Of a DNA stretch of 64,000 nucleotides, positions 4,296 through 29,991 are shown piece by piece. The DNA is taken from NCBI GenBank assembly GCA_964493715.1, contig CAZBPC010000002.1:4814-68813 (forward strand), given 5' to 3'. The DNA is from an uncultured archaeon. GTDB lineage: Archaea; Asgardarchaeota; Lokiarchaeia; Sigyniarchaeales; SOKP01. The notes beneath the pieces are model-generated. The model had not been told where the DNA came from. It made no database searches and was given only the letters and a program-made list of their open reading frames with translations. The position numbers and the translations under genes were made by a program. Within the stretch, counting starts at the first letter, position 1. The number at the start of each line of letters is the position of its first letter.

Positions 4296-5081
4296 ATGGT
4301 TCTAAAAATGACAGAATACGATAATAATGATCCTTCAAAAAGGAAACACATTAGAATTGCTTTAATTTTAGCTCTTACATGTGCTACGTTGATATTTTTA
4401 AATTTTGTGGTCATTTCAATTATTTTTGATTGGGCCGATTGGGTAGCCATATTAGTTTTTAGCATAATCTTCATCGTACCAGCATATATATCAAATGCGG
4501 GCATGGTAATGGTCGGAGGTGGCAAACCAATAGATGGTGGAAAGTTCTGTAAAGACGGAAGAAGAATCTTAGGCGACCATAAAACAGTCAATGGTCTAAT
4601 AAAGGGACCACTATATGTTGGAATTCCCATTTCTTTAGGAATACATCTTTTATTTTTTATTTTATGGCCTCTGATTCAACTTATTCCCATCCAAGCCGCT
4701 TCTCAAGGGTTTTTTGTTTTATATGCTGATCTTAGATTGTATGAATTTTACTTTATTGGTGGACCTTTCCCCATCGGAATTCTCATATTAGTCCTTAGGA
4801 TTATTCTCTGTTCATATGGCGCTGTTTTAGGGGATCTTGCAGGTTCTTTTTTAAAGCGACGCCTTAATTACGCAAGTGGAGCCCCTTTCTGGGTTGTAGA
4901 TCAATTGGATTTTGCTTTAGGAGCAATCCTTCTTGGTTCAATTCCAGCATTGATCTTTCCTGGAATTTATTTAGCTCCTGACTGGAACATTATAATATTT
5001 TTAATGATAATAACACCTTCTGTCAGCATCATAGCCAACACAATCGCTTATGTTGTCGGATGGAAGGATGTTCCGTGGTAA
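4296..5081 (+). CDS. carS: CDP-archaeol synthase (DUF46/CarS family)
   Basis: 261-aa polytopic membrane ORF with PIDGGKFCKDGRRILGDHKTVNG and the CTP-transferase signature GDLAGSFLKRR. Confidence 0.7.
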   Translation: MVLKMTEYDNNDPSKRKHIRIALILALTCATLIFLNFVVISIIFDWADWVAILVFSIIFIVPAYISNAGMVMVGGGKPIDGGKFCKDGRRILGDHKTVNGLIKGPLYVGIPISLGIHLLFFILWPLIQLIPIQAASQGFFVLYADLRLYEFYFIGGPFPIGILILVLRIILCSYGAVLGDLAGSFLKRRLNYASGAPFWVVDQLDFALGAILLGSIPALIFPGIYLAPDWNIIIFLMIITPSVSIIANTIAYVVGWKDVPW

Positions 5082-5082
5082 T

Positions 5083-5595
5083 TTAAATTCTTACAACCTC
5101 ACATTTTATGTTTATTGGAAAACCATCATCATTATTAAAAATAATATAATTTTCAAATAATTTATTTACCGCTTTGATATACTCTCCTTTACACCCAATG
5201 GCAATCCCCCTTTCTACAAAACTTAAAAAACCAATAATTATATCTTTTTTCCCAGAATACACATTTCGATAAACTCTTATGTCATGAACGTAAGGATCGG
5301 GAAAGAAGTTATACAGGAGTCTTAAAAGTGTTCTTTCATCACGAATAATTAATATCTTTTTATTTTGGATTTGTCGCCTCATGAGAGGTAAGGAAAGTTT
5401 TGCATTAAAATACTCTTGGCTATTTACAAAAAAGAAAACGAAATTACTAATCAAGATGATATTTTTAGGATAAACCTTGCAGCATTGATAAAAGTAATGG
5501 TGAAGGAGTAATTCTTGGTTAGTATATTTTTTTTTAATATGAAGTCTCTGATTTAATGACGAATCCGTAGAATCTGTAGAATTTATATCCAACAT
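5083..5595 (-). CDS. Hypothetical protein, possible KH-type RNA-binding domain
   Basis: 170-aa ORF. The C-terminal GIAIGCKGEYIKAVNKLF resembles the KH GxxG loop region. The N-terminal half is unrecognisable. Confidence 0.3.
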   Translation of the reverse strand: MLDINSTDSTDSSLNQRLHIKKKYTNQELLLHHYFYQCCKVYPKNIILISNFVFFFVNSQEYFNAKLSLPLMRRQIQNKKILIIRDERTLLRLLYNFFPDPYVHDIRVYRNVYSGKKDIIIGFLSFVERGIAIGCKGEYIKAVNKLFENYIIFNNDDGFPINIKCEVVRI

Positions 5596-14383: not shown

Positions 14384-15091
14384 TTGACAATGGATAATAT
14401 ATTAAGAAATTATAATAGAATCATCAAATATAAAAAAAGTAATTGGGAGCTTCTGAATAACAAAAGACTACAAGCTTTAAAATTACTAAATATTTTTGTT
14501 GAAGAAGGTTTTAATCCATACATTTATGGAAGTTTAGCTCGTGGAGATGTAAATATTGATAGTGATATTGATATTGTATTTCTACAAAGGATATCATCAT
14601 TTCTAATTGAGCATATTTTATTTAAAAAAGGTTATGATAATTATTTTAGAGAAATAGTGATGGCCACTCCAAGAGATACAATAAAATTATATATTTATTT
14701 AAGTGAATTAGAAAGCATCACAATCCCAATATCCCCTTTCGATAAAAAAAACTTAGAATTTTATTCATTTGGAGGAAAAATCAATCAAGTTCAATTAAAA
14801 AATAAAATTCGAGTCCCTGGAATAGATAAACGGTTAGTGCTTATTAACCCTACAAATGATGGTCATGAAGAATCCTCTGTTATAGGGAATGAGCATAACG
14901 TCGCTAAACAGATTAACGTAGATATTGAAACTGTTATAGAAAGAAGGAACGTACTTTTAAGGCGAGAACAATATGGGCGTACAGGGGTCTTCATAAAAAG
15001 ATCTTTAAAACCAGATGAATCTACAGAAGATGTTCTAAAAATACTTGCTAGAAAAAAAACAATTATTAGAAATAAAATGCGGGAAATATGA
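14384..15091 (+). CDS. Pol-beta-superfamily nucleotidyltransferase domain protein
   Basis: GSLARGDVNIDSDIDIVF (GS...D.D) minimal NTase motif. Confidence 0.6.
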   Translation: MTMDNILRNYNRIIKYKKSNWELLNNKRLQALKLLNIFVEEGFNPYIYGSLARGDVNIDSDIDIVFLQRISSFLIEHILFKKGYDNYFREIVMATPRDTIKLYIYLSELESITIPISPFDKKNLEFYSFGGKINQVQLKNKIRVPGIDKRLVLINPTNDGHEESSVIGNEHNVAKQINVDIETVIERRNVLLRREQYGRTGVFIKRSLKPDESTEDVLKILARKKTIIRNKMREI

Positions 15092-16257
15092 GAAAAAAAA
15101 GAATTGTTGATTCAGGAAAAAATAACTTACTAATTAAAGGAAGAGGGATCCCAAAGGGATGTCAAATATGTTTGAAAGGAGCAAAAACAGTCTTATTTCT
15201 AAATGGATTGTGCCAGAATCCAGATCATTGTTACTGGTATTGCCCCATTTCTGAAGAAAGAAAGAATAAATCTTTAATGTTTGCTAATGAGATCCAAATT
15301 ACGACGAAAGAAGAAATTCTTGATGAAATTTATAATACGGATGCCTTAGGTATGAGCATCACGGGAGGAGATCCCCTTTTTCCACCAAATATTGAATCTA
15401 CACTTGAAATAATTAGATTTATCAAATTAAAAATGGGTAAAAAATTCCATATACACCTTTATTCGAATGGTATTAATTTTGATGAGAATTTGGCAGTAAA
15501 TCTTGCGAATGCCGGCCTAGATGAAATCAGATTTAATCCCTCTCGGAATAATTGGAATGTTATCCGTTTAGCACTTAAAAAAGGAATGAAGGTTGGTGCT
15601 GAAGTGCCATTAATCCCTCAAGATAAGTATTTAAATGATATAGAACATCTTATCTTATTTTTAGATAAAATTGGGGCTGATTTTATCAATTTAAATGAAT
15701 TCGAATATAGTGAATCTAATTGTATTCATTTAAAAAATAGAGGTTTTGAATTAAAAAAGGAGACTATAGCTTCGGTTAAGAATAGTAAAGAAATGGCTTA
15801 TGAACTAATAAAGCGTATTTCTCCTAAAGTATCAATTAAAATTCATTTTTGCACAAGTATTACAAAAGATTATTGGCAATTAAGCAAACGATATTATCGA
15901 CGAGCAAAAAAAATACAAAAATCATATGAATCAATTTCTCTTGAAGGTTTATTGATTTACAGTCAAATCGAAGGACCTTTAGACGATTTAAATGAATTGA
16001 AAGAAGAATTACTAAAAATGACGAATTTAAAACCGAAATATTTTGAAATTGATAATTCAGTTTTAAAATTACCCGTTAATACTGCACTGAATGATGAAAT
16101 AATTCAATTAGTTAATAGTAAAGGATTAAAATGTTATATTCAAGAAATCACTCCATTCAGAGAAGAAAAATATAAACAAATAACAGAAAAAACACCAATT
16201 AACGTATTCCGGGAGGAATTAGGATTAAATGAGGATAGAAAAAGTCAAGATCAATGA
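15088..16257 (+). CDS. Radical SAM-like protein (non-canonical Cys cluster)
   Basis: 389 aa. Cys cluster CQNPDHCYWYC, then GGDPLF and EIRFNP segments as in radical SAM TIM barrels. Overlaps the upstream stop by 4 nt. Confidence 0.5.
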   Translation: MRKKRIVDSGKNNLLIKGRGIPKGCQICLKGAKTVLFLNGLCQNPDHCYWYCPISEERKNKSLMFANEIQITTKEEILDEIYNTDALGMSITGGDPLFPPNIESTLEIIRFIKLKMGKKFHIHLYSNGINFDENLAVNLANAGLDEIRFNPSRNNWNVIRLALKKGMKVGAEVPLIPQDKYLNDIEHLILFLDKIGADFINLNEFEYSESNCIHLKNRGFELKKETIASVKNSKEMAYELIKRISPKVSIKIHFCTSITKDYWQLSKRYYRRAKKIQKSYESISLEGLLIYSQIEGPLDDLNELKEELLKMTNLKPKYFEIDNSVLKLPVNTALNDEIIQLVNSKGLKCYIQEITPFREEKYKQITEKTPINVFREELGLNEDRKSQDQ

Positions 16258-16669
16258 TTTGAGCCAAATAAATTCACTTGAGAAAAGTACCTTTAAAAAT
16301 AATTCGTTTTCAGAAGAAACTATTGAACAACTAATTTTCCATAACACTTTTTTTTTGAAAATTGTAAATAACGATGAAAAAATAATCGGATTCGTAATAG
16401 CATTAGAGCAAGAAAGAAATAAACTCAATATTATAAATTTCCTCATAAGAGAAGATTATCGAAATATGGGATTAGGCTCTTATCTCCTAAATCATATATT
16501 AACGGAAGTCAAGAAATCAAAAAATTTTGATCGAATCATATTAAATGTACGAACGTCTAATCTAATCGCTCTTAAGCTGTATAAAAATCATAATTTTCAT
16601 ATTGTCAGAGAAATTGATAATTATTACTACAAAGGGGATAATGCTTACTTAATGGAGCTTAAGTTCTAG
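16229..16669 (+). CDS. rimI: GNAT N-acetyltransferase (RimI-like)
   Basis: 146 aa. The acetyl-CoA binding segment YRNMGLGSYLL fits the GNAT motif A. Confidence 0.75.
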   Translation: MRIEKVKINDLSQINSLEKSTFKNNSFSEETIEQLIFHNTFFLKIVNNDEKIIGFVIALEQERNKLNIINFLIREDYRNMGLGSYLLNHILTEVKKSKNFDRIILNVRTSNLIALKLYKNHNFHIVREIDNYYYKGDNAYLMELKF

Positions 16670-16772
16670 CTTTTTACTATTAACTTAAACTTATAAATAA
16701 AAACTATTATAATATCAGTATAAATAAATGCTTTAAATTCAGATTAATAATCAAAAGAGAGGTTGAGGTATA

Positions 16773-16925
16773 ATGACCCCATTCGATAATGAACTGAAAG
16801 AGGAAATAAAAAAGGGTGTTACTCTCCAAAAAGTAGATGAAGAAGAAATGAAGAAACGTGAGGAAGAAAAGAAGAAGCGGATGGAAGAATTGGAGATGAT
16901 TAAAAAAGCTCTTGGAGATAAATGA
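16773..16925 (+). CDS. 50-aa microprotein with WH2/beta-thymosin-like motif
   Basis: ATG preceded by GAGGTTGAGGT. Product: MTPFDNELKEEIKKGVTLQKVDEEEMKKREEEKKKRMEELEMIKKALGDK. EIKKGVTLQKVDEEE fits the WH2 pattern I-x-x-G-x-x-L-x-K-V. Confidence 0.4.
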   Translation: MTPFDNELKEEIKKGVTLQKVDEEEMKKREEEKKKRMEELEMIKKALGDK

Positions 16926-17050
16926 TTATTTTTTTTTACTATTTTTTTTATTTAGTTTTGTAATTTGAAGTATAAATTTATTGGAAAAATTACTTTTCTA
17001 ATACTATTACTATTTATTTTTAACCCTTTCATAAGAAAGATTGATTGGTT

Positions 17051-18124
17051 ATGAAAATTCTGGAAAAAAATGATAAAACAGGAGAAATAACGGTTCAAAT
17101 TGAGACCTTAAACGATTTATGGAGCCTATACAATGTAATAGCAGAGAATGATCAAGTTGCTGCTCGAACACAAAGAAGAATTGTATTAAAAGAAGGATCA
17201 AAAGGAGAGCGTAAGCCAATGTACCTTAAAATTAATGTAGAAGGTGTCTCATTTCATGAATTTTCTAATCGCTTAAGGATCAAAGGTACAATATTAGAAG
17301 GACCTGAAGATTTTGTAAGTTTTGGGACCTATCATACTTTAAATATTGAAATTGGTCAAACATTAGTTATTAAAAAGGAGAATTGGTTGAGAAGCGAAAT
17401 AAAGAGATTAAATGAAAAATCTAAATTTGAAACAAATTTTAATATGATTATAGTTGCTATAGAAGCAGGTTTGGCCACAATCTCCCTCACAACAAATTTC
17501 AGCCATAAAAGAATTGCTACCATAAAAAAAAATATACCAGGAAAACGATATGAGCAAACACACAGAAATAAAGCATATGAAGAATTTTTTTTAGAAATTG
17601 AAAAAATACTTGAAGAAAATATAAAGATTAATGAAATTAATTTGATTGTTTTATGCGGACCTGGAAGCACCAGAAATCACTTTTTAACTTATTTGAAAGA
17701 AAATGTAAAAGCACCTTACCAGAATAAAATTCAAAACTTTCATGCAAGTTCTGGGACTGAAAGTGGAATCATCGAAATTCTAAAATCTAAAAAATTAATG
17801 AGTATAAAAAATAATGTAAAAATACTACAGGAGAGTCAAAAAATAGAAGAGATCTTTACACTGTTTGACAAAAACCCTGATCTTGTCGCTATCGGCTTTG
17901 ATGAGATAGATGTTGCATCGCAAAAAGGTGCAGTAAAAGAATTATTTCTTGCTGATACCCTAATTAGAGGAGCAATGAAAAATCAAAAACTACAAATTGA
18001 AAGAATAATAAGTAATGTAGAGAGATCACAAGGTATAATCCACATTATGAATAGTGAGCATCCAACTGGCCAACGTATCGATGATTTAGGTTCTCTCGTA
18101 GCAATATTAAGATATAAGGTTTAA
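17051..18124 (+). CDS. pelA: Pelota (Dom34) mRNA surveillance / ribosome rescue factor
   Basis: N-terminal MKILEKNDKTGEITVQIETLNDLW and eRF1-like domain layout. About 357 aa from the ATG at 17051. Confidence 0.85.
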   Translation: MKILEKNDKTGEITVQIETLNDLWSLYNVIAENDQVAARTQRRIVLKEGSKGERKPMYLKINVEGVSFHEFSNRLRIKGTILEGPEDFVSFGTYHTLNIEIGQTLVIKKENWLRSEIKRLNEKSKFETNFNMIIVAIEAGLATISLTTNFSHKRIATIKKNIPGKRYEQTHRNKAYEEFFLEIEKILEENIKINEINLIVLCGPGSTRNHFLTYLKENVKAPYQNKIQNFHASSGTESGIIEILKSKKLMSIKNNVKILQESQKIEEIFTLFDKNPDLVAIGFDEIDVASQKGAVKELFLADTLIRGAMKNQKLQIERIISNVERSQGIIHIMNSEHPTGQRIDDLGSLVAILRYKV

Positions 18125-18142
18125 TCAATAATGGTGTAATGA

Positions 18143-19174
18143 ATGCATCAAGATATTATTTATGTCAATGAAGCATCTAATATCCCCTTGATGGGAGTAG
18201 ATTTTTTAGGTTTAATTGATCGTGGTACAAACATTATTGAGATTAAGCCCATAACATTATGCAATTTGAAATGTAAGTATTGTTTCGTTAGTGCTGGAGA
18301 TTATAGAACAAATTTTATCGTGAGTTCGAAATATATAATAAAAGGAATAAAAAAAATAACAGAAATTAAAGGAGCTCACGATTTAGAGATTCATATTGCG
18401 CCATATGGTGAAAGTTTACTTTATCCTGAATTATATGATTTATTGACGAAATTATGGAATATTGAAGGAATCTCTACAATTTCTATGCAAAGTAATGGAT
18501 TATTATTAACAGAAAAAAAAATCAACATGTTGGAATCATTAAATCTCTCAAGAATAAATATTAGTTTAAACACACTTAATGAAAATCTCGCAAGAAAATT
18601 GTGTGGTTGCAAAGTTTATGGTGTTAATGAATTATTAGATATTTTAAATTTACTTATCGCATCAAAAATAGATGTACTTATTGCACCAGTATGGTTTCCA
18701 GGGAAAAATGACATAGATATTGAAAATATTATTAAATATGTAATCTACTTAAAAAATCAAGGATATAAGCAAATCCCAAAAATTGGGATACAAAAATATT
18801 TAGTTTATAAAACTGGTAGAAAGCTCAGCAGAACTTATCCAAAATCTTGGGGATATTTCTATGAGCAACTTACGAAATTAGAAAAAAAATATGGATTAAA
18901 GTTAAAACTAGGACCTAAAGATTTTGGAATTCATAGAAGAGAATCGATCTCTACCTTAAATTTAAAAAAAAATGACGAAATAAAATTAGTAATAATATCT
19001 AAAGGACGTTGGGAACAAGAATGTATTGGTAAAATTACTAAAGAGATAGGTATTAAGGTACTATTGCAAAAACCCCTTAAATTTACAGATAATATGATTG
19101 GTAAAGAAATTAAAGTAAAGATTATAAAAGCTAATTATAAAGATAATATTCTAACTGCTAGATATCCTACCTAA
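18143..19174 (+). CDS. Radical SAM protein
   Basis: Canonical CNLKCKYCF (CX3CX2C) cluster near the N-terminus. 343 aa. Confidence 0.65.
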   Translation: MHQDIIYVNEASNIPLMGVDFLGLIDRGTNIIEIKPITLCNLKCKYCFVSAGDYRTNFIVSSKYIIKGIKKITEIKGAHDLEIHIAPYGESLLYPELYDLLTKLWNIEGISTISMQSNGLLLTEKKINMLESLNLSRINISLNTLNENLARKLCGCKVYGVNELLDILNLLIASKIDVLIAPVWFPGKNDIDIENIIKYVIYLKNQGYKQIPKIGIQKYLVYKTGRKLSRTYPKSWGYFYEQLTKLEKKYGLKLKLGPKDFGIHRRESISTLNLKKNDEIKLVIISKGRWEQECIGKITKEIGIKVLLQKPLKFTDNMIGKEIKVKIIKANYKDNILTARYPT

Positions 19175-19256
19175 TTAAATCACTTTGAAAAACCTAAAAA
19201 TTATAATATCAAAATGCTATTAAATTAATATTAAATGTAATGATTATTTATTCGAG

Positions 19257-19889
19257 TTGAAAATTATGAGTCCTATTATAACGCATGAAGATGAGCTAGA
19301 ATTAGCCAAAACTGAACAAGAACTCGTTAAAGAAATTAAAAAACTTGCGAAAGCTCAATCAGCACTTGTAAATTCTCAGAAAAAGTATGCGGAAAACTTA
19401 ACTAAAGCGACTCTTGCAAGAGAAATGATGAATCGAACTTATAGAGATGTTTTAAAACAAATGCAAACATTAGTGAGAGAAAGACGATCTAATATTAAAG
19501 ACGAAGAAGTCCAGTTGTTTGATGATATTATTCATCAAAATGATAAATATATTGAAGCTAACAAGAGTTATATTGATTCTATAAAAAATCTTACTCTAAA
19601 AAAGGATTATTTAATTGAAAAAAAAGAAGAATTTGCTGACGCATTAAACGAAGTAGCCCAAAGGAGAAGTGTCATCATAAAAAAAGCTCTATTTGTAGAA
19701 AAAAAGAAAAATAGCTTGGAAGAAGGCGAAAAAATAAAAATTTATGAATCCGAACTAGATGATATCCAAAGAGAATTTGATAGAGCTCGAGACGTAATGC
19801 TTAAAAAAATTAATCAATTTTTACAAGTTAGAGACGAGGTAGACAACTTGTGGTTAAAAGTAAAAGATACAGTATCCAAGTCAAGCTAA
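19257..19889 (+). CDS. Coiled-coil protein, unknown function
   Basis: About 207-210 aa, all-helical and K/E/Q-rich with heptad character. No catalytic motif. Confidence 0.4.
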   Translation: MKIMSPIITHEDELELAKTEQELVKEIKKLAKAQSALVNSQKKYAENLTKATLAREMMNRTYRDVLKQMQTLVRERRSNIKDEEVQLFDDIIHQNDKYIEANKSYIDSIKNLTLKKDYLIEKKEEFADALNEVAQRRSVIIKKALFVEKKKNSLEEGEKIKIYESELDDIQREFDRARDVMLKKINQFLQVRDEVDNLWLKVKDTVSKSS

Positions 19890-20852: not shown

Positions 20853-21431
20853 TTAAAACTCTAGAAAGCCTGGATCATCAAAAATGTCTTCGATTTTCTT
20901 TTCCCGCTTTACTTTACCTTCAGTTTCATCAAATAATGAATCTTCATCAGTTTTTATACCTTTTTCAAGTTCAAGAGTATCTAATTGCTGTAAAGCTCCC
21001 TTTTCAAGTTGTTTATACTCTTCGGATTTCATGCGCCAATGATTAGCATCTTCTAATTTATTACCTTCTTCCTCTTCCAAGGCGATTGCTGCTTTTGCTC
21101 GGCAAATGTCTGATAAAATAGAATATGATAATGCCAATTCACCCCATTCATTCCCTTTTTTTAATTTAAAGATTCTTTTTTCTAATCTTTGTAACTCTTG
21201 GTCTGCATAATAAACATCGATGAAATCCCCAAATGCATCAACTGGTTCAGATATGGAATTTACTATTACATCCTTATTCAATCCACAATATCCACATTTA
21301 ACCGTTGCAATAGCAGATTTTCTTATATTTTCTACTTTGACGGATTTTTCTCCGCAATTAGGACATGTAAAGATCTTTGGTACTCTCTTTACTCGTTTGT
21401 ATGATTGCTGCTTTCTTTTTCTTCTTCCCAT
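20853..21431 (-). CDS. elf1: Transcription elongation factor Elf1 homolog with long acidic coiled-coil C-terminal extension
   Basis: A basic N-terminus MGRRKRKQ, then FTCPNCGEKS...KCGYCGL...SEPVDAFGDFIDVYY, matches the Elf1 zinc-ribbon family pattern. 192 aa. Confidence 0.8.
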   Translation of the reverse strand: MGRRKRKQQSYKRVKRVPKIFTCPNCGEKSVKVENIRKSAIATVKCGYCGLNKDVIVNSISEPVDAFGDFIDVYYADQELQRLEKRIFKLKKGNEWGELALSYSILSDICRAKAAIALEEEEGNKLEDANHWRMKSEEYKQLEKGALQQLDTLELEKGIKTDEDSLFDETEGKVKREKKIEDIFDDPGFLEF

Positions 21432-21602: not shown

Positions 21603-22703
21603 ATGGAACATAAGTCTCTATCAATAGAAGAAGATGAAAATTTGTTAATCAAGATCCTTGATGATGCAGATATGCGTTACATAATACTGTATATGTATAT
21701 AATTCGAAATGATTTGCTAAAGGATCTTAGTGATTCTAAAATGATAGAATCTTATGAACGTGTTTTAATCTTGGATGAAATATTTAAAAATAATATAATT
21801 GAATTTTGGGATGAAGAATTCATTGAAATAATGATAGATCTGGGTCTATTCAAAAATATAAGAAGTTTGGGAGAGTATAACAAATTAGAAGGAGATTTTA
21901 TCCTAAAGTTAGGAGAAGAAACCATTACAATTGAAAACAACACGATTTCTGTACCCGATGATATTCTCTTCTTAATTATTAAAAAAAAATTCAAATTTTT
22001 GAACAGAAGGAATTTCAATCTCGCACTTACGAGATTAAAAGGAGTCAGTTGTGAAAAAAGCAGTATTATTCATCCTTTTATTTATGAAATTGGAGATCAC
22101 GACTTTACTCTTTCTAATGATCTTTATTATATATTGGATCAATTTGGAAATGTATATCAATCAGTTAAAATTGAAATTACAATTGAAGGATTTTACCAAA
22201 GATTTGAAGAATTACTTGAAAAAGTCAATAATTTTATTGATATATTTGATCCCGTTTTAAATTCTAAACCAGGAATGAAAAGGATTGATGAGGCTCTAGA
22301 ACAAAACAAAGAAGTCATATCATTTCTAAAAGATTCAAAAATTCAACTTTCAGATAAATTTAATTTAGAAAATGTTGAAAAGTCAGATGATACATATAAG
22401 AAGTGGTATACACAATTAACGATTTTACTAAATTCGAGGTATCAATTAAATAAGATTCAAGATAAACTGAATGAATTAAGAAGTTATTATTCAGGAAAAA
22501 AAAAAAAAAATAATTATCTTGAATTTATTGAAAAAATCTCGTTTAATGAAAATGGAATAGTTAATACTATTCAAAACACACTCATCAAATTAAGAAAAGA
22601 AATTGTTGAAATTAATACTCAAATTTCGGATTTTACAAAAAAAAAATTAAAATTATTAAATTTAGATTATGAAAGAATAATTGTTGAAAGCAAGAATGAA
22701 TAA
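21603..22703 (+). CDS. Operon gene 1: hypothetical protein with C-terminal coiled coil
   Basis: 366-aa ORF. AAGGTGAG lies upstream. Contains an A15 tract at 22496-22510. No recognisable motif. Confidence 0.5.
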   Translation: MEHKSLSIEEDENLLIKILDDADMRYIILYMYIIRNDLLKDLSDSKMIESYERVLILDEIFKNNIIEFWDEEFIEIMIDLGLFKNIRSLGEYNKLEGDFILKLGEETITIENNTISVPDDILFLIIKKKFKFLNRRNFNLALTRLKGVSCEKSSIIHPFIYEIGDHDFTLSNDLYYILDQFGNVYQSVKIEITIEGFYQRFEELLEKVNNFIDIFDPVLNSKPGMKRIDEALEQNKEVISFLKDSKIQLSDKFNLENVEKSDDTYKKWYTQLTILLNSRYQLNKIQDKLNELRSYYSGKKKKNNYLEFIEKISFNENGIVNTIQNTLIKLRKEIVEINTQISDFTKKKLKLLNLDYERIIVESKNE

Positions 22704-22705
22704 TT

Positions 22706-23665
22706 ATGATATGTCCATCATGTAATGTTGAAATGGAACCCCTTGTAGCAGGTATCTTTCAATGCCCTAATTGCAGAAAGATAGTAAAATCTAAAGAAAA
22801 AACAAGTAAAAATGTTTCAGACGAGGGTGAAGATAAAGGAGGATTTTTAGATGGAAATTATTTTCATGACCAGTTAACATTAAATAAAGAGTATGAAATT
22901 TGTGAAAAAGGTATAATTATCAATAAAACAGAAACTAGAGTACTGGCTGCTCTAATTTGCCATAGTCCATTGTTAAAGAGTGAAAGATACGTTCGACTTT
23001 CATGGTGGAAAACATATCAACACGCAGGAATGCTTAAAATTTATGAAAGTCACGTTCTAACTAACCTAATTAAAGCCTTAGAAAAATTTGATGAATCTTT
23101 TGATGATTTGTGGAACTGGAAAGGAAAATTTGATAAAAAGGATTCAAAAACTGAAGAGGATCTAGAAAAAGAGAAAAAATTAGACATCATTAAATATCGT
23201 ATATTAGAGAATCGAACATGCCCTAATTGCCAACAGAAAATGGAAAAACATAAATCTCATTATATCTGTCAACATTGTTCAGAAATTGTTATTTTAGAAG
23301 GATATAATCAACCAATTTTTAATATCGATTCTAAAGATCTTGATTTGAGATTTCATAGTAATTTTCCCATTAATTTTTATATGCCTACAAGTGGAATAAC
23401 CATCAAATGGCTTGTAGGTGAATGGAAAGCTATAGTCGTTATTTATTCAAATAATAACCCTAATAGACGCTGGCTTAGATTTTATTGGTGGACTCGGGAT
23501 TTAAGTAAATTAATAAAATATGGACAAAGGGAGATGACTGAAGGTACTCAAATGGGATGGAAAGCGCAAAAGGGAGTGTCTTCTCCAAATATATTTGATA
23601 AAAAGAATATTAGACCATTGATTAATGCTTTGGAAAAGATTTCTAATGAATTAAATTGGAACTAA
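22706..23665 (+). CDS. Operon gene 2: internally duplicated zinc-ribbon protein
   Basis: 319 aa. Two modules each contain a CxxC...CxxC ribbon (CPSC..CPNC and CPNC..CQHC), an R[YW][VL]R[LF]xWW[KT] motif and an [IL]xALEK[FI] helix. Confidence 0.55.
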   Translation: MICPSCNVEMEPLVAGIFQCPNCRKIVKSKEKTSKNVSDEGEDKGGFLDGNYFHDQLTLNKEYEICEKGIIINKTETRVLAALICHSPLLKSERYVRLSWWKTYQHAGMLKIYESHVLTNLIKALEKFDESFDDLWNWKGKFDKKDSKTEEDLEKEKKLDIIKYRILENRTCPNCQQKMEKHKSHYICQHCSEIVILEGYNQPIFNIDSKDLDLRFHSNFPINFYMPTSGITIKWLVGEWKAIVVIYSNNNPNRRWLRFYWWTRDLSKLIKYGQREMTEGTQMGWKAQKGVSSPNIFDKKNIRPLINALEKISNELNWN

Positions 23666-23682
23666 AATAGGAAAGAGAAAAA

Positions 23683-24822
23683 ATGGAAAAAAGAACGAAT
23701 TCTTCATGGCAAAACCTCTTACAATCATTTGAAAAAGGGCTTGAATTGGCAATCGATCAAGTAAAAAAACGTGATGTTGAAAGCATACCTGGAGCAAAAG
23801 ATGCATTAGTTCAACGGCTTGAAAATATGAAATTACACTTTCCTAGGAATAATGGTGATTTATTTAAGAAAGCAGTAAATGAAAAAATCCAATTTTTTTT
23901 TTTCCCTAAAACTAAAAATTTCTCTGAAGCATTTAGTAAGATTTTAAATTCCCGGACCCATGAACAAGATTTTATAATAAATGAGTTACTCAATGGTTTT
24001 GTCACCTCCAAGGCAAAAGCAATCGCCTCGGGAACGCAAGTGCCTATTATAGATAGGATGGTAGAAGCTTTTAGTAAAAGAAATGATTTCCACATAGTGG
24101 ATCATCAATTTTATGCTATGTTTGGGGATCCAAATAAACCTCGACATTATGTTAAAAACCAACTTGAAGAACTTGTCAATATGTTTGGATTAATCTCTAA
24201 GAAGCTTATCATTGAGAAAGATGTAAGACGAAGTGAGGAGAAAGTTTATACTTTTTACACCTTTCCTGATGATATTATTAAAATCCTTGAAGAAAAATAC
24301 CTAATACTTGATACTAAATTAGGATATGCTTATGTTTCTAAAAATTTTGATAGAAATGTATTTATATGTATGTTTTTAGCAAATGTAGCAATTAACAGTG
24401 ATAATATTGAAAAAATTGGAGGTTCTTATACCATAAATGGAATTTGTGCCATTTTTGCATTAATTTTATTACTGAGTTTTATGCCAAAACTATCCGTGGA
24501 CGAAACAAATCCAATTTTAAATGATCCTGGTTATAATGAAAGTAATATGAGTGTTATTCCAAAATCTTGGATGATGCGACAAGTTTTAGAGCCATTATTT
24601 GAACCACTGATTAAAATTATTGCTTATAGATTAGGGGGAGGTTTATGGCTATCAAAAGTTATTGATTCAGAAATAAATAAAAGGATTCACAATCAAATAC
24701 GTTTCTTATTAAAAGATGTCAATAAATGGGTGTTGGGTGAACTAGTACGTGTAGAGATTCCAATTTTTGTAGAAATTGCGAATATCTTTGCAGAAATTGT
24801 AGTTGGATATGATAAAGAATAA
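23683..24822 (+). CDS. Operon gene 3: hypothetical protein with central hydrophobic segment
   Basis: 379-aa ORF, 17 nt after gene 2. No recognisable motif. Confidence 0.5.
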   Translation: MEKRTNSSWQNLLQSFEKGLELAIDQVKKRDVESIPGAKDALVQRLENMKLHFPRNNGDLFKKAVNEKIQFFFFPKTKNFSEAFSKILNSRTHEQDFIINELLNGFVTSKAKAIASGTQVPIIDRMVEAFSKRNDFHIVDHQFYAMFGDPNKPRHYVKNQLEELVNMFGLISKKLIIEKDVRRSEEKVYTFYTFPDDIIKILEEKYLILDTKLGYAYVSKNFDRNVFICMFLANVAINSDNIEKIGGSYTINGICAIFALILLLSFMPKLSVDETNPILNDPGYNESNMSVIPKSWMMRQVLEPLFEPLIKIIAYRLGGGLWLSKVIDSEINKRIHNQIRFLLKDVNKWVLGELVRVEIPIFVEIANIFAEIVVGYDKE

Positions 24823-24845
24823 ATTAACTATTAAAATGAGATATC

Positions 24846-26147
24846 ATGAGTTATTCAAAAAAACCTGCAAGAAAATCTGGACGTAAGCGCGAGAAATGGA
24901 CTGATATTTTACCAAGATACCTTACATTTATTAGTCATATGAGACCAATTCTTAGAGAAACAAGAAAAATTGTTAGTGATTTGGATGCAGATTTATTGAT
25001 AGACACAGAAATCTTAGATAAAATTCGTGAAGAAGAGGAAAAAAGAAATATAAGAAAAGTAAGAGCACTTTCCGAATTCTCTGCAATGTATCGATCTAAT
25101 GTTTATGAAATAATCAAAGGCTTTATTACTAAATATAGAGGAACAATTCCAATTATTGATATTAAAGATTACATCATTGAGTTCTTACATGAATCTATCG
25201 GTGCTCTATATATTTTAAGACATATAACTAATCCAGATCAAAAAAATTTGGATGATACCTACCTTTATTCTCTTAGCAAATTTATAGAAGAGCGTTTATT
25301 TCATAAAGGTGCAAATTTAAGAATGATATATGAAAAACTTCATAAATTTTCGACGGAATACTATGAATGCCAAAGACATTTATTGCAATCACATACCTAT
25401 TACAGAGAGAAACTAGATAATTCTGATTCATTTGAAATACCAGGAATCTCTCCAAAAATGTATCAAATAATAAACAACATTACATCATTGTTTAATCTTG
25501 ATCCTAGTTTCGGGGTTTTTCCAGAACGACCTGATTATGAAATTCCAATGATTTTAAAAAGTGATATATTTTTACCTTATATCGACTCTATAGCTAATGC
25601 AGAAGAGGAATCTATTGAAAATCTAGCTGAACGAATCGGTATGCGATTAATTGATGATCTATTTTTAGCACCTAAAGAGGAATTTGTAAATATATTAGAA
25701 GAAAATAATTATTTAAGAACAAATAAACAATCCGATGGAACAATAAGATATTTACCTCAATTTAGTAATGAAACCCTTATCTTGCATTACCTTGCATTTG
25801 TTTCTCAACGGAGGGGTTTTTTATCAAAAGAATTGATTAATTGGATTTCGATGAATTTTGCATTTTTGATATATATGGGGATTTTAAAATGGAAATTATC
25901 AGATGAGAATATCTTTTATTCAATATTTAAAGATTTACAAACTAATGAAAAAATTTTACCTTATTTAATGAAGCTAATTTGTTTTCCGAATTATCTTGGA
26001 TTAGATAAAATGAAGATAAGAGACTCAGTTCAATATAGGAAGGAAATATTTAATTTTATAGGATCACAAATTGATAATTTAAAAGATCTCATTAATGAAG
26101 TTGCACTATTTTGTGAAAAATTTGATAAAGAAAGAAAGAAAAACTAA
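24846..26147 (+). CDS. Operon gene 4: hypothetical protein
   Basis: 433-aa ORF with a basic N-terminus (KKPARKSGRKREK). No recognisable motif. Confidence 0.5.
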   Translation: MSYSKKPARKSGRKREKWTDILPRYLTFISHMRPILRETRKIVSDLDADLLIDTEILDKIREEEEKRNIRKVRALSEFSAMYRSNVYEIIKGFITKYRGTIPIIDIKDYIIEFLHESIGALYILRHITNPDQKNLDDTYLYSLSKFIEERLFHKGANLRMIYEKLHKFSTEYYECQRHLLQSHTYYREKLDNSDSFEIPGISPKMYQIINNITSLFNLDPSFGVFPERPDYEIPMILKSDIFLPYIDSIANAEEESIENLAERIGMRLIDDLFLAPKEEFVNILEENNYLRTNKQSDGTIRYLPQFSNETLILHYLAFVSQRRGFLSKELINWISMNFAFLIYMGILKWKLSDENIFYSIFKDLQTNEKILPYLMKLICFPNYLGLDKMKIRDSVQYRKEIFNFIGSQIDNLKDLINEVALFCEKFDKERKKN

Positions 26148-26180
26148 ATAATAATATACCGAAAAAAGAGATGAAAGAAA

Positions 26181-27290
26181 ATTTCTAAATTAAAAGATGA
26201 TCTTGAAAAGAAAGTAATATTTACGGATGACGTTATTAGAGAAAGACTTGGGAAATATGGTGTGGTATACTTTCCGGAAGATATTAAAGAATCCGTTGAT
26301 GATATATTAGGGAATGCAAAGATAAAAGAAATACTTGAAGATTTCTTCAAAGCTTTGAACAAGTATTATGATTTTGTGGAACAGTTAAAAAATACCAATT
26401 TAGCTCCAAATCTCACAGTACTTTTATATGGTCCTCCAGGAACAGGCAAAACCTCACTAACTAGAGGATTTGCAAAAAAATATGGCGTGCCAATATGTGT
26501 AGTTGAATCAGATCGCCTTGTTTCACCGTTATTAGGAGATACAATTAAAAACATAAGAAATGTGGTGGAGTTAGCTTCAGAAATTTCTAAAGAGAGAGGT
26601 GCTTTTGTTTTATTTTTTGATGAAATTGATGCTGTTGGTTCAGAACGATCCAACACACATGAAGTAGGAGAAATCAAAAGAGCTGTCATTTCGTTTTTAC
26701 AGGTAATTGATAGAGTAAATTATGAAGGTGTACCATTAGCAATATTCGGAGCCACAAATCACCAACATCAATTAGATTCAGCAATATGGAGGCGCTTTAC
26801 ATTTCATTTTAGATTTGATTTTCCGGATTATAATTTAAGAAAGAAGATAATTGAAGCTTTTTTAGATAAAATCAAACAAGCAAAAATAGGTGTTGATAAT
26901 CAAATTTTTTCTAATTTAAATGAGGAATATAATCGTATGCAAAAAATTGAAAAAGAAATTACAAATAAAATGGGGCAGAACGTCACTGAATTTGATGATA
27001 TAATATTATGGAATGAAATTTCCAAGAAAATTAAAGGAGAGGGGTTATTAAAATTGACTCACGGATATTCTGGATCTGATATCGAAAGAGGAACTAAAGT
27101 TGCATTATTAAAAGCGATTACTATCGAACTCCTAACTTACGATCTATTCTATGATTCCTTAAAGTTAGTTGGAGGTACAGCAATTCATGTCGAACGTCAA
27201 AATACTCTAGCAACTACGAGAGGATTCATATTAAAAGATGAAAGAAATGAGAAAAAATCTAATAGGGATAATAAACCTCCTGAAATTTAA
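26181..27290 (+). CDS. Operon gene 5: classical-clade AAA+ ATPase (start probably ATT at 26181; first GTG at 26262)
   Basis: Walker A LLYGPPGTGKT, Walker B FFDEIDAV, second region of homology GATNHQHQLDSAIWRRF, and YSGSDI near the C-terminus. No MIT or other N-domain. Confidence 0.8.
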   Translation: MSKLKDDLEKKVIFTDDVIRERLGKYGVVYFPEDIKESVDDILGNAKIKEILEDFFKALNKYYDFVEQLKNTNLAPNLTVLLYGPPGTGKTSLTRGFAKKYGVPICVVESDRLVSPLLGDTIKNIRNVVELASEISKERGAFVLFFDEIDAVGSERSNTHEVGEIKRAVISFLQVIDRVNYEGVPLAIFGATNHQHQLDSAIWRRFTFHFRFDFPDYNLRKKIIEAFLDKIKQAKIGVDNQIFSNLNEEYNRMQKIEKEITNKMGQNVTEFDDIILWNEISKKIKGEGLLKLTHGYSGSDIERGTKVALLKAITIELLTYDLFYDSLKLVGGTAIHVERQNTLATTRGFILKDERNEKKSNRDNKPPEI

Positions 27291-27329
27291 TCCTTTAATA
27301 TATGAATATGATAATAAAATTGATGAAAA

Positions 27330-28370
27330 ATGTCAAAAGATTACATTCTTGATTTAAGTAGAATAAAAAGTATCACACAACCTTTATTAACCCTCCAAAA
27401 TGGATTAGGGTCCCTTTCCCCTTTATTAGAGCAAATAGAGCAATCGAAAAATGGTTTTCATAAAATCCTCTTTTTAAATATGGATAAACAACAATTTAAT
27501 CAGATAATAACTCTAATTCAAGAATTACATAAGGAATTAACTCAAATAACACACAAAAATATCACTAATTTCCTTGCTTTTCAAGATAATTTGTTGAAAA
27601 AATATAGGGAGCAATATAGAGATCGTTTATTAAGATTGAAAATCGACCAGGAAAAAAGTAAAAACCTTGGCCTTTACTTAATTGGTCAGAAAAAAATAAG
27701 CAAGGTAGATCATCAGATTTCCTACGTTAACTCTATTATTCTGGATGACTGGTTCAATCTTTTAGATTCTTTAAATCAAAACTCTAATTTTTTGAGTTTA
27801 ATCCCTAAAATAAGAGATTATTACAAAAAAATCACTCACAATAGATTAAAAATGGAATTAGAAAAGATACCTGAGGAATTTGATGTAATGATCAAACGTG
27901 AATTCAAGAATGCTTTTAATGAAGATCCTGATTTATCTTTTGAACAATTTTTCAATGAAAATGAAAAGATGTTAACTGCTGCCGATTTAAACACAAGAAG
28001 AGAAGTGTTACAAAGAGTCAAGGAAAAAGAAGAATTAGAAAAATTAAAATTAAAGCAAGAAGAGCAAAATCAAGGTTATAAAGATTACTTAAAATTATCT
28101 GCAAAAGAATTTGAAAGGCGAAGGAGAAAAAAATCAAGAGAAAAATTAAGTGAGATTGATATTTCTTCCAACCCAAAAGAAGAAATAGAAATTAGTAAAG
28201 AAGTATCTGAGAAAATAGAACAATTTAAATCACAATTCGAAAAAAAATTTCAAGATGATTATTTAACAGGATTAGATCAAGAACTAGATCCACTAGATTT
28301 AATTAGAGAAAGGAAAAAACTGAAAGCTGAAGAGTTTAAGAAATTCAAAAAACATTTTGATCAGGAATGA
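27330..28370 (+). CDS. Operon gene 6: K/E-rich coiled-coil protein
   Basis: 346-aa ORF with a highly charged C-terminal half. No recognisable motif. Confidence 0.5.
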   Translation: MSKDYILDLSRIKSITQPLLTLQNGLGSLSPLLEQIEQSKNGFHKILFLNMDKQQFNQIITLIQELHKELTQITHKNITNFLAFQDNLLKKYREQYRDRLLRLKIDQEKSKNLGLYLIGQKKISKVDHQISYVNSIILDDWFNLLDSLNQNSNFLSLIPKIRDYYKKITHNRLKMELEKIPEEFDVMIKREFKNAFNEDPDLSFEQFFNENEKMLTAADLNTRREVLQRVKEKEELEKLKLKQEEQNQGYKDYLKLSAKEFERRRRKKSREKLSEIDISSNPKEEIEISKEVSEKIEQFKSQFEKKFQDDYLTGLDQELDPLDLIRERKKLKAEEFKKFKKHFDQE

Positions 28371-28374
28371 ATAA

Positions 28375-29991
28375 ATGACAGTTGAGGATGAACATAAACA
28401 AATAACTATAGGAACGCAGAAATATAATATCCAAGATAAGTTAACATTGATATTAGGAAAGATTAAAGACGATGACTTAATCTCATTTAAGGATGAAAAT
28501 TTAGTTGATTTAATCACAAATTTAGATCCTTTACCAGTAGAGAATATTATTAAAAATCTAAAATCAGTTTACCCCGTTATCACAAAATCGATCAATCTCT
28601 TGAAATACTTAAAAGATTATATTAAAACTATCGAATTAAATACTGAAATTATATCAGATTATAATAAATTGGCTCAGAAAATCATTCTTTCATTTCAATT
28701 CGTATTTCTGAACAATGAAAAATCTCAACTCAATGACGAATTAGAGATCGCAAAATTATCCAAGCAATCAAGTGAAATAAAAGCAATTTCAGATTTATTG
28801 GAGAAGTTAAATGAATCTTTAGCACATAATAAAACCAATTTGACTTATTTAGAGCAAGATTACCAAAAAAAGAAAAATCAAATTGATAAAATAAACCAAG
28901 AAATCCAAAATGCAAATGATATTATACAAAGCTTGACAAATAAGAAAAAATTATGTTTTAGGTATATCAATAACATCACACGTAATATGGATTTATCATC
29001 AAAATTAATAATTAATGAAGCAGAAATCAATTCAACATTAGATTTAGATCCTGATTTAACCAATGCTGAAAAAATCAGAAAACTGCAAATTAAAGCAAGA
29101 GAAATACAGCATGACATAAATCAGCATAAATTAAAAATAGACGAAACTAAACTTAAATATGACAATTTATCACCCCAATTTAAAATAATTAGTGAGGATT
29201 ATGAAAAACTTGTTCATTTGATTGAAGAAGATGAAAATAAAGTAAAAAAAAAAGAACATAAACTGAAAGATATGATATCAGGATTAGATCCTAAAATGAA
29301 TGAAAAATTACAAAAAATTGATTTTAGATCTATTCAAACCCCCTCCCAAATAGAATCAGAATTATCAAATATTGAATCGAGATTAAATACAATTTTAACA
29401 AACGAAACCTTCATCCATGATAATTCTTTTATTAAAGTCGAGGAGGTAATAAAGGAGCTTAATAAATTAATTATTTATTCAAAGAAAAATAAAAACCAAA
29501 TTACAATTTCTGATGCAAATCAAAAATTCACCGATATGTTTGAAGGCTACTTCACATTAGAGTCTATTGTTAGTAAATTAGAGGAAATACTTAATTTACT
29601 ATTAAGTGAGATAGATTTACGAGTAAACTTAGAAATATCAATTACCGAAGGATATACAAAATTATTAATTCATCCTCAATTTGCCAGAAATAAGGCACAA
29701 AATTTACAATATGATGACTTAACGACCCCCGAAAAGATATTTTTCGTAATTATAATGTACATATCAATAAAAATGCTCCAAAAATCAAAAACAATACTTT
29801 TTTCAAATGTTTTCATTCCCGAATCTTATAATAAGCGAGGATCGATATTTAGAACAATTAGAAGGTTAGTCCAAATTTTTGAGAGAAATTCTTATTTCAA
29901 TGATTATACTATCGTCTTTATAATTTCAAATTTAGAATTGAAAAAACAAATGGAAAATATAAAAATAATAAAAATTAAAGAAAGTGATTAG
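28375..29991 (+). CDS. Operon gene 7: SMC/Rad50-like coiled-coil protein with degenerate ABC-ATPase head motifs
   Basis: 538 aa. The N-terminal KLTLILGKIKDDD sits where IVGPNGSGKS would be. A coiled coil of about 350 aa follows. The C-terminal LTTPEKIFFVIIMYISI...ILFSNVFIPESYN...YTIVFIISN parallels LSGGEK...ilDEpd..LD...viTH with the catalytic residues replaced. Confidence 0.45.
   Translation: MTVEDEHKQITIGTQKYNIQDKLTLILGKIKDDDLISFKDENLVDLITNLDPLPVENIIKNLKSVYPVITKSINLLKYLKDYIKTIELNTEIISDYNKLAQKIILSFQFVFLNNEKSQLNDELEIAKLSKQSSEIKAISDLLEKLNESLAHNKTNLTYLEQDYQKKKNQIDKINQEIQNANDIIQSLTNKKKLCFRYINNITRNMDLSSKLIINEAEINSTLDLDPDLTNAEKIRKLQIKAREIQHDINQHKLKIDETKLKYDNLSPQFKIISEDYEKLVHLIEEDENKVKKKEHKLKDMISGLDPKMNEKLQKIDFRSIQTPSQIESELSNIESRLNTILTNETFIHDNSFIKVEEVIKELNKLIIYSKKNKNQITISDANQKFTDMFEGYFTLESIVSKLEEILNLLLSEIDLRVNLEISITEGYTKLLIHPQFARNKAQNLQYDDLTTPEKIFFVIIMYISIKMLQKSKTILFSNVFIPESYNKRGSIFRTIRRLVQIFERNSYFNDYTIVFIISNLELKKQMENIKIIKIKESD

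Follow-up and report, generated by a model that had tools for sequence, protein, structure and literature searches.

Among prokaryotes, it is the Asgard archaea that have lokiactin, profilin and gelsolin, and a 2024 review names only profilins and gelsolin/cofilin-like proteins as their actin regulators. Neither a peptide dedicated to sequestering monomers nor a nucleator belongs to the known toolkit, which leaves the start and the buffering of lokiactin assembly to be explained. A gene for a 50-aa microprotein, located on a 64,000-nucleotide stretch of DNA from an uncultured Asgard archaeon (this whole stretch is called the window below), raises the question of whether a free-standing protein resembling WH2 domains and beta-thymosins could act as such a regulator.

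A conserved Asgard gene between RimI and Pelota

The preliminary description of the locus had placed a 50-aa ORF with a strong ribosome-binding site in an otherwise empty 375-bp gap, and each of these points was reproduced. The ORF runs from ATG 16773 to TGA 16925 on the + strand and is translated as MTPFDNELKEEIKKGVTLQKVDEEEMKKREEEKKKRMEELEMIKKALGDK (50 aa), exactly as described; at this length it falls under the customary 60-aa limit of ORF listings and would be passed over by them. The Shine-Dalgarno-like sequence lies directly upstream, and the gap from the stop of the RimI-type GNAT gene (16669) to the start of Pelota (17045), inside which the ORF is located, measures exactly 375 bp. The features of the gene and its surroundings are as follows.

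16773..16925 (including the stop codon), + strand: microprotein coding sequence, from its translation, 192 homologues, dN/dS and gene order in 81 Asgard loci
16715..16745, + strand: TATA-like A/T-rich elements, putative archaeal promoter of the microprotein gene, from sequence reading
16757..16769, + strand: Shine-Dalgarno-like GAGAGGTTGAGGT, ending 3 nt 5' of the ATG, from sequence reading
16926..16959, + strand: oligo-T tract, putative archaeal transcription terminator, from sequence reading
14384-19889, + strand: seven-gene block of a 235-aa nucleotidyltransferase, radical SAM, RimI-type GNAT, microprotein, Pelota, radical SAM and a 210-aa coiled-coil protein

The putative promoter contains ATAAATAAAT at 16720-16729 and TTTAAAT at 16733-16739, 35-50 nt 5' of the ATG. 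A TATA-like motif between -75 and -25 was found in 71 of 78 orthologous loci, a count that is weakly informative because the genome has 30% GC. A Shine-Dalgarno-like 4-mer occurs no more than 20 nt from the start in 57/78 loci against a background of 13%, and a run of five or more T within 40 nt past the stop in 72/78 against 10%; in the window, the runs that may terminate transcription are T9 at 16929-16937 and T8 at 16942-16949. A sigma-70 promoter scan was set aside, as its model is not applicable to archaea, and an Rfam scan of the 375-bp gap gave only a noise-level SAM-II match and no family accounting for the gap.

Searching 5.8 billion proteins identified 192 homologues, all of 49-51 aa and 70-96% identical. 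Where a source name is given, it is either a spurious JGI name or that of a hypothetical protein from Lokiarchaeota/Promethearchaeota, Hermod-, Hod- and Thorarchaeota MAGs. The family was found only in Asgard genomes: 94 relatives come from species-representative genomes, and all 80 of the loci retrieved have Asgard gene content, including one mislabelled as a bacterium. Analysis of 48 gapless coding sequences gave a dN/dS of ~0.10, with codon position 3 the most variable (0.29 vs 0.17 and 0.13) and the N- and C-terminal halves under equal constraint. At the same loci, median identity to the window was ~76% for the microprotein, ~62% for Pelota, ~55-60% for the radical-SAM genes and ~45% for RimI; identity above that of Pelota and RimI would be expected for the ligand of a very conserved partner. 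The ORF is a genuine gene, conserved and under purifying selection. A short, low-complexity ORF in an AT-rich genome (30% GC) might also be a chance ORF in an intergenic spacer, or mark a non-coding RNA locus, but the probability of this is practically nil, being refuted by the conservation data: the 192 homologues, the low dN/dS with its third-position variability and the retained Shine-Dalgarno and oligo-T signals, together with the lack of an Rfam match. Conservation in related genomes, proposed as a check in the preliminary description, was thereby established.

The flanking genes, a RimI-type GNAT (16229-16669; TIGR01575, 85.3 bits) and Pelota (17045-18124; TIGR00111, 250 bits), belong to the seven-gene block, which is shared by loci labelled Loki, Thor, Hermod, Hod and Odin. 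Of 81 loci, 74-80 keep the order and strand of the first six genes, and 65 keep those of the 210-aa coiled-coil gene (CC210). Overlaps of 4 nt between the nucleotidyltransferase and radical-SAM genes and of 29 nt between the radical-SAM and GNAT genes suggest translational coupling of these three, and the RimI-microprotein-Pelota order is also kept in one divergent archaeon. Linkage to Pelota is not obligate: Hod- and Sigyn-labelled members bearing LKKV (MDDELKNAIKGGAALKKVD...) adjoin a MoxR-type AAA+ ATPase/VWA pair and not Pelota, and another family member sits between a ZPR1-like gene and a GNAT. Given its own expression signals, the microprotein gene looks like an independent unit within an inherited housekeeping block.

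Several further observations were made at these loci. The contigs L084 and L087 share one arrangement, in which the family member (5001-5156 in both) is divergently transcribed from the MoxR-AAA/VWA pair. Locus L035 (DATKTW010000134.1), labelled as a Candidatus Nanopelagicaceae bacterium, carries six of the seven block genes, with Pelota 64% and the microprotein 82% identical to the window, and is almost certainly a mis-binned Asgard contig. The 210-aa predicted coiled-coil protein (window 19257-19889, + strand) is 52-96% identical across loci, often above Pelota, and no relative was found in Pfam, NCBIfam or the PDB; it is an uncharacterised, strongly constrained Asgard protein. Downstream lies an Elf1-like zinc-ribbon protein (20853-21431, - strand; PF05129, E=1e-18), which at 192 aa is more than twice as long as the 79-position domain model and has a syntenic counterpart in the Thorarchaeota locus L001. 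Beyond it, seven same-strand ORFs of 319-538 aa occupy 21603-29991 (+ strand), of which five have no Pfam match; these lie on either side of a double-zinc-ribbon protein and an AAA ATPase (26262-27290). The 538-aa ORF among them (28375-29991) was considered as actin-like and rejected, the phmmer match being at noise level (E=0.05) without PDB or Pfam support.

Predicted anatomy and the resemblance to WH2 domains

An AF2 model of the microprotein, built on a 59-sequence alignment, predicts a helix at residues 3-14, an extended segment at 15-22 (GVTLQKVD) and a second helix at 23-49, with a mean pLDDT of 88.9. Helix, loop and helix follow one another in the same order in actin-bound beta-thymosin. 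A Foldseek search of the peptide model against the PDB gave no matches. The predicted elements map to the window as follows.

16779..16814, + strand: N-terminal predicted helix, residues 3-14 (PFDNELKEEIKK), from AF2, block pLDDT 81-88
16791..16838, + strand: WH2-like segment, residues 7-22, ELKEEIKKGVTLQKVD (L8, I12, G15, L18, K20, V21), from the HMMER and HHalign register with the N-WASP and MIM WH2 domains
16839..16919, + strand: predicted long C-terminal helix, residues 23-49, from AF2, pLDDT 94-96

The hydrophobic residues of the N-terminal helix fall at positions 4, 8 and 12, and in the broad family L8 is kept in 86% and I12 in 88% of members. In the model the N-terminal helix leads into an extended motif of the LKK[TV] type, with a helix amphipathicity that is marginal (hydrophobic moment 0.49 vs 0.28±0.13 in shuffles, P=0.07). 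Conservation in the broad family reaches 98% at G15, 100% at L18, 93% at K20 and 86% at V21, and the residues L(-10), I(-6), G(-3), V(-2), L(0), K(+2), V(+3) fall in the same register as in N-WASP. The second residue of the WH2 'LL' doublet, at position -9, is K or Q in free-standing orthologues and not hydrophobic, and the hydrophobic residue at position 4 is an extra one, lying one turn before the WH2 register.

The C-terminal half is REEEKKKRMEELEKVKEALG, no part of which matched any thymosin or PDB chain when the family profile was compared with the PDB. Its signature, R29-EEEKKK-R36 .. E39-L40 .. L47, includes the most conserved part of the wider family, the REEEKKKR..EL block, with acid-base pairs from i to i+4, the pattern of ER/K single alpha-helices. 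A short hydrophobic patch (M37, L40, I/V43, L47) follows the REEEKKKR sequence. No member of the broad family departs from L18, R36, E39 and L40, and R29, E32, K33 and K35 are each kept in at least 93% of members; in the modules reused in repeat and fusion proteins only L18 and R36 stay invariant. The idea that the C-terminal helix is conserved on one face was rejected (R=0.22 vs a null of 0.20, P=0.40), the conservation being that of a contiguous ER/K block.

The fit of residues 7-22 to the WH2 consensus, on which the preliminary description had rested its reading, was confirmed. The pattern occurs once in the 59,150 six-frame residues of the window, where the expectation is 0.000 for its strict and 0.055 for its relaxed form, and in none of 200,000 shuffles of the peptide. 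Measured by Pfam, the microprotein is not a formal member: WH2 (PF02205) gave no match to the window protein at E<=10, matched 1 of 30 family members at E=0.16 without reaching the gathering threshold of 23.1 bits, and gave no match to the repeat proteins at E<=1, while Thymosin (PF01290) gave no match at E<=10 and matched 0 of 30 members. Pfam/NCBIfam scans of the peptide and 30 relatives found no TMA7, SERF, thymosin or ribosomal-protein match; sub-threshold matches to the unrelated K/E-rich families DUF3006, Phlebovirus_NSM and DUF7067 were read as compositional and discarded.

Tests that depend on residue order, by contrast, were all positive. When the family profile was searched against the PDB (177,635 sequences), tandem WH2 of N-WASP (E=0.0019), N-WASP (0.36) and the MIM WH2 (0.54) were found among the five best matches, all aligned to profile positions 2-25, whereas two column-shuffled profiles retrieved no WH2 chain (best match E=0.19 for one, no match for the other). 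A WH2 HMM built from four sequences taken from search output and 14 further WH2 sequences entered by hand scored the window peptide at 7.9 bits, a score reached by 13 of 5000 whole-sequence and 2 of 5000 N-half shuffles, and scored divergent members with a canonical LKKV at 15-18 bits. Compared with the WH2 alignment in HHalign, the 59-member family alignment scored 17.9 (probability 55%, E=1.2e-4) over residues 7-22, compared with 7.07±1.72 for column shuffles, none of 600 reaching 17.9. An independent alignment of 30 repeat and fusion modules scored 17.6 in the same register, against 6.72±1.48 and 0/300. Both results hold with only the four search-derived WH2 sequences, and the HHalign probabilities are moderate (41-56%). 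Single repeat and fusion modules averaged 0.06 bits against the WH2 HMM, 4 of 31 having p<=0.01, and only the mean of the set beats shuffles; the notion of a stronger WH2 likeness in repeat modules than in the free peptide is thus wrong for single sequences and true only at the level of the set or profile.

The WH2 resemblance is not an artefact of K/E composition and stands above composition-matched controls, which answers the possibility raised in the preliminary description that the match might be indistinguishable from shuffled K/E-rich sequence. Its label of a WH2/thymosin motif is retained in part, the similarity exceeding shuffles (HHalign, HMM and shuffled profiles alike) and the Pfam thresholds for WH2 and Thymosin not being reached.

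An exhaustive HMMER search of 1.84 billion representative proteins with the Asgard profile also retrieved P0168 (E=1.3e-4), a WH2-repeat protein with repeats such as GLKNEIKKGPVLKKTMSVDKSSP, whose only PDB matches were an N-WASP/thymosin hybrid and the WIP WH2. Its ORF lies on L088 (1-774), a 774-bp metagenomic contig with GTAAGT and GTAGTA splice-donor-like sites. Because of these sites the contig is probably eukaryotic, and P0168 is probably an exon of a eukaryote that gene calling took for a prokaryotic gene.

Repeat and fusion proteins, and known systems compared

The complete module of ~47 aa recurs in larger proteins, with ~9 tandem copies in P0126 and 4-5 in P0162, P0170 and P0175, so that a stand-alone layout of ~40-50 aa, as in beta-thymosins, is repeated as a unit. 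P0146 and P0165 are 33% identical and share one architecture, consisting of an N-terminal domain, 2 or 4 modules and a conserved C-terminal domain of ~50 aa. The best Pfam match of the N-terminal domain was Profilin (PF00235), with E=2.5e-4 and 1.5e-3, just below the cut-off. A two-sequence profile of the domain matched Loki and Odin profilins in the PDB at 5.1e-10 to 3.9e-9 and 7pbh at 1.1e-6, the next match being at 0.35. A Foldseek search with its AF2 model returned Odin and Loki profilins as the top five structures, three of them solved on actin, with TM scores up to 0.82 (5zza, Odin profilin/actin). Sequence profile and predicted fold agree in confirming the domain as an Asgard profilin.

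The main partner of profilin is actin, and by way of the profilin fusion the module is linked to the actin system; domain context is the strongest functional clue. The fusions are rare, forming two clusters from a few MAGs. P0146, P0165 (locus L082 8001-9164) and P0155 make up a rare family of profilin, 2-4 WH2-like modules and C-terminal domain. The C-terminal domain reads I.AKF.TDYIYDDFQLLK.K.EIE..LK, and its AF2 confidence is low because the alignment is shallow.

Other fusions are neutral with regard to actin. P0171 and P0172 consist of an LRR domain and then the module, plus an RHH- or RING/zinc-finger-like tail, and in P0160 the module follows a ribbon-helix-helix domain. The order of LRR and module in P0171 and P0172 recalls leiomodin; as pure speculation, the LRR and ribbon-helix-helix fusions might be imagined as MRTF-like transcription factors that sense actin. 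Around the fusion and repeat genes lie housekeeping genes, which gave no functional hint, and word-indexed protein searches with P0165 and with the module alignment gave nothing new.

Among known systems, the WH2 domains of WASP, N-WASP, WAVE, WIP and MIM share with the microprotein an amphipathic helix, a Gly, L-x-K-V/T and subsequent acidic residues. Both have one and the same register, L(-10), I(-6), G(-3), hydrophobic(-2), L(0), K(+2), V(+3), and both occur singly and in tandem arrays, as carried by Spire, Cobl and N-WASP. The microprotein differs in scoring below the Pfam threshold, in having K/Q instead of a hydrophobic residue at position -9, and in being a complete 50-aa protein rather than a motif within a large one; it is also always accompanied by a conserved C-terminal helix of ~27 residues that WH2 domains lack. 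With beta-thymosins (thymosin beta-4 and the repeats of ciboulot, actobindin and tetrathymosin) it shares the free-standing length of ~45-50 aa, the succession of N-terminal helix, LKKT-type segment and C-terminal helix, and the head-to-tail repetition of the whole module in larger proteins. Unlike them it has no Pfam Thymosin match, its C-terminal helix is about twice as long and of ER/K type, and the thymosin C-terminal motif LP.KE.IE.EK was not found, REEEKKKR.EEL standing in its place. Divergent members such as MDDELKNAIKGGAALKKVD presumably resemble the N-terminus of actobindin, a likeness we take only as a lead.

WH2-like motifs have been published for archaea. The linkers of Asgard two-domain gelsolins carry the LKKT-type motifs LRRV, LKHV, LVDV and LKDV, so that the suggestion in the preliminary description that WH2 motifs had not been described in archaea is incorrect. 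In crystal structures with rabbit actin this linker motif lies at the actin surface, the contact residues being conserved in Loki actin; on rabbit actin, then, Asgard gelsolins already occupy this cleft and the LKKT site. The gelsolin motif is a four-residue linker whose cleft helix is supplied by a gelsolin domain, whereas the microprotein has a predicted helix of its own and no gelsolin domain. In the literature available for searching, neither a free-standing archaeal protein of WH2/thymosin type nor the microprotein sequence was found.

Two other systems invite comparison. Leishmania profilin has a WH2-like insertion that contacts actin, and the Leishmania/Trypanosoma protein, like P0146 and P0165, combines a profilin with a WH2-like element in a single chain, the two parts contributing to the binding of actin; there the element is an insertion of ~20 residues inside the profilin fold of a eukaryotic parasite and not a set of C-terminal tandem modules. 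Arcadin-2 of Pyrobaculum, which depolymerises crenactin filaments, is an archaeal regulator of an archaeal actin homologue, a role for which the microprotein is only a candidate, and its C-terminal peptide reportedly binds a hydrophobic groove of crenactin. It is unrelated in sequence, belongs to another archaeal phylum and has no LKKT-type motif.

Candidate function and its alternatives

The reading we prefer, to which we give about an even chance, is that the microprotein is an Asgard-specific, free-standing, beta-thymosin-like binder of lokiactin monomers. It builds on what was seen directly, namely a real gene under purifying selection, WH2 similarity above composition controls, and a module found in tandem and fused to profilin; its binding steps we infer from sequence and models. 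The N-terminal helix would lie in the barbed-face cleft of actin, where WH2 domains bind between subdomains 1 and 3, and be terminated by G15, and the extended L18-x-K20-V21 would run along the actin surface in the manner of the LKKT/V motif of WH2 domains. The ER/K-type C-terminal helix would reach the pointed-face side of the same monomer, an option modelled on the C-terminal helix of thymosin beta-4, or else engage a second partner. A single-module protein would then buffer or sequester monomers and exchange them with profilin, and the rare multi-module and profilin-fused relatives could gather several monomers as a nucleation or delivery device. As the Pfam thresholds are not reached and the thymosin C-terminal motif is lacking, the microprotein is not filed as a member of Pfam WH2 or Thymosin; we do argue that it most likely works like one. 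The thymosin-like peptide envisaged in the preliminary description gains from the predicted helix/extended LxKV/helix layout and the profilin fusions, and loses from a C-terminal half with no thymosin counterpart and from the missing Pfam Thymosin match.

Each alternative accounts for some of these observations. The microprotein could be an Asgard-specific helical protein for another conserved partner, its likeness to WH2 being convergent; the G-x-x-L-x-K turn and the ER/K helix would then be features of a small helix-loop-helix or single-alpha-helix adaptor. Such an adaptor would fit with Pfam thresholds that are not reached, single modules that score weakly against the WH2 HMM, the strongest conservation residing in a family-specific C-terminal block, and the existence of LRR and RHH fusions, and the confidently ordered loop and helices of the AF2 model could mean an autonomous mini-fold instead of a disordered WH2. 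We nevertheless consider it unlikely, as it does not account for the same-register match of two independent alignments to WH2 (z ~6-7), for the enrichment of WH2 chains among the PDB matches or for the attachment of the module to profilin. That attachment, covalent in P0146 and P0165, could itself indicate that the module binds profilin or another cytoskeletal signature protein and not actin, for example as a functional replacement for polyproline tracts, to which profilins of the Loki type do not bind, and archaeal profilins have been published as associating with polyproline by a mechanism that appears divergent from that of eukaryotic profilins. The resemblance is specifically to actin-binding WH2, however, and the eukaryotic precedent, the WH2-like insertion of Leishmania profilin, contacts actin, which makes a profilin ligand very unlikely.

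Gene order points in a different direction, that of a translation or ribosome-rescue accessory protein linked in function to Pelota and RimI. The NTase-rSAM-RimI-microprotein-Pelota-rSAM-CC210 order is widely kept, the divergent archaeon retains its RimI-microprotein-Pelota core, a GNAT adjoins the gene in a third arrangement too, and small K/E-rich proteins often associate with ribosomes. Since the entire block is conserved, this linkage may be mere inherited gene order; the gene has its own Shine-Dalgarno sequence, TATA-like elements and putative oligo-T terminator, Hod- and Sigyn-labelled members lie beside MoxR-AAA/VWA instead of Pelota, and no Pfam/NCBIfam translation family was matched, TMA7 and SERF included. 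A translation role would also leave the profilin fusions unexplained, and we regard it as distinctly unlikely.

Beyond the preferred lokiactin-binding role, a bolder and more tentative proposal, which we hold to be possible but on balance doubtful, is that the family represents an ancestral Asgard G-actin module of WH2/beta-thymosin type that predates eukaryotes, deployed in three forms: a widespread and highly conserved monomer buffer of 50 aa, tandem arrays, and profilin fusions serving as primitive nucleators of actin or machines for monomer delivery. The WH2 motif would in that case have been invented in archaea, and the pre-eukaryotic cytoskeleton would gain a third regulator class for actin besides profilin and gelsolin.

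The microprotein family is widespread in Asgard genomes, strongly constrained and apparently undescribed, and it shows that surveys of eukaryotic signature proteins have a blind spot for genes of less than 60 aa. Because the microprotein is widespread, more conserved than its housekeeping neighbours and short enough for synthesis, the hypothesis is directly testable in assays with lokiactin or rabbit actin, and the microprotein is a testable candidate for an undescribed archaeal actin regulator. Confirmation would make the profilin-module and tandem-module proteins the first candidate archaeal actin nucleators, and would move the origin of the WH2/thymosin principle of actin binding to before eukaryogenesis.
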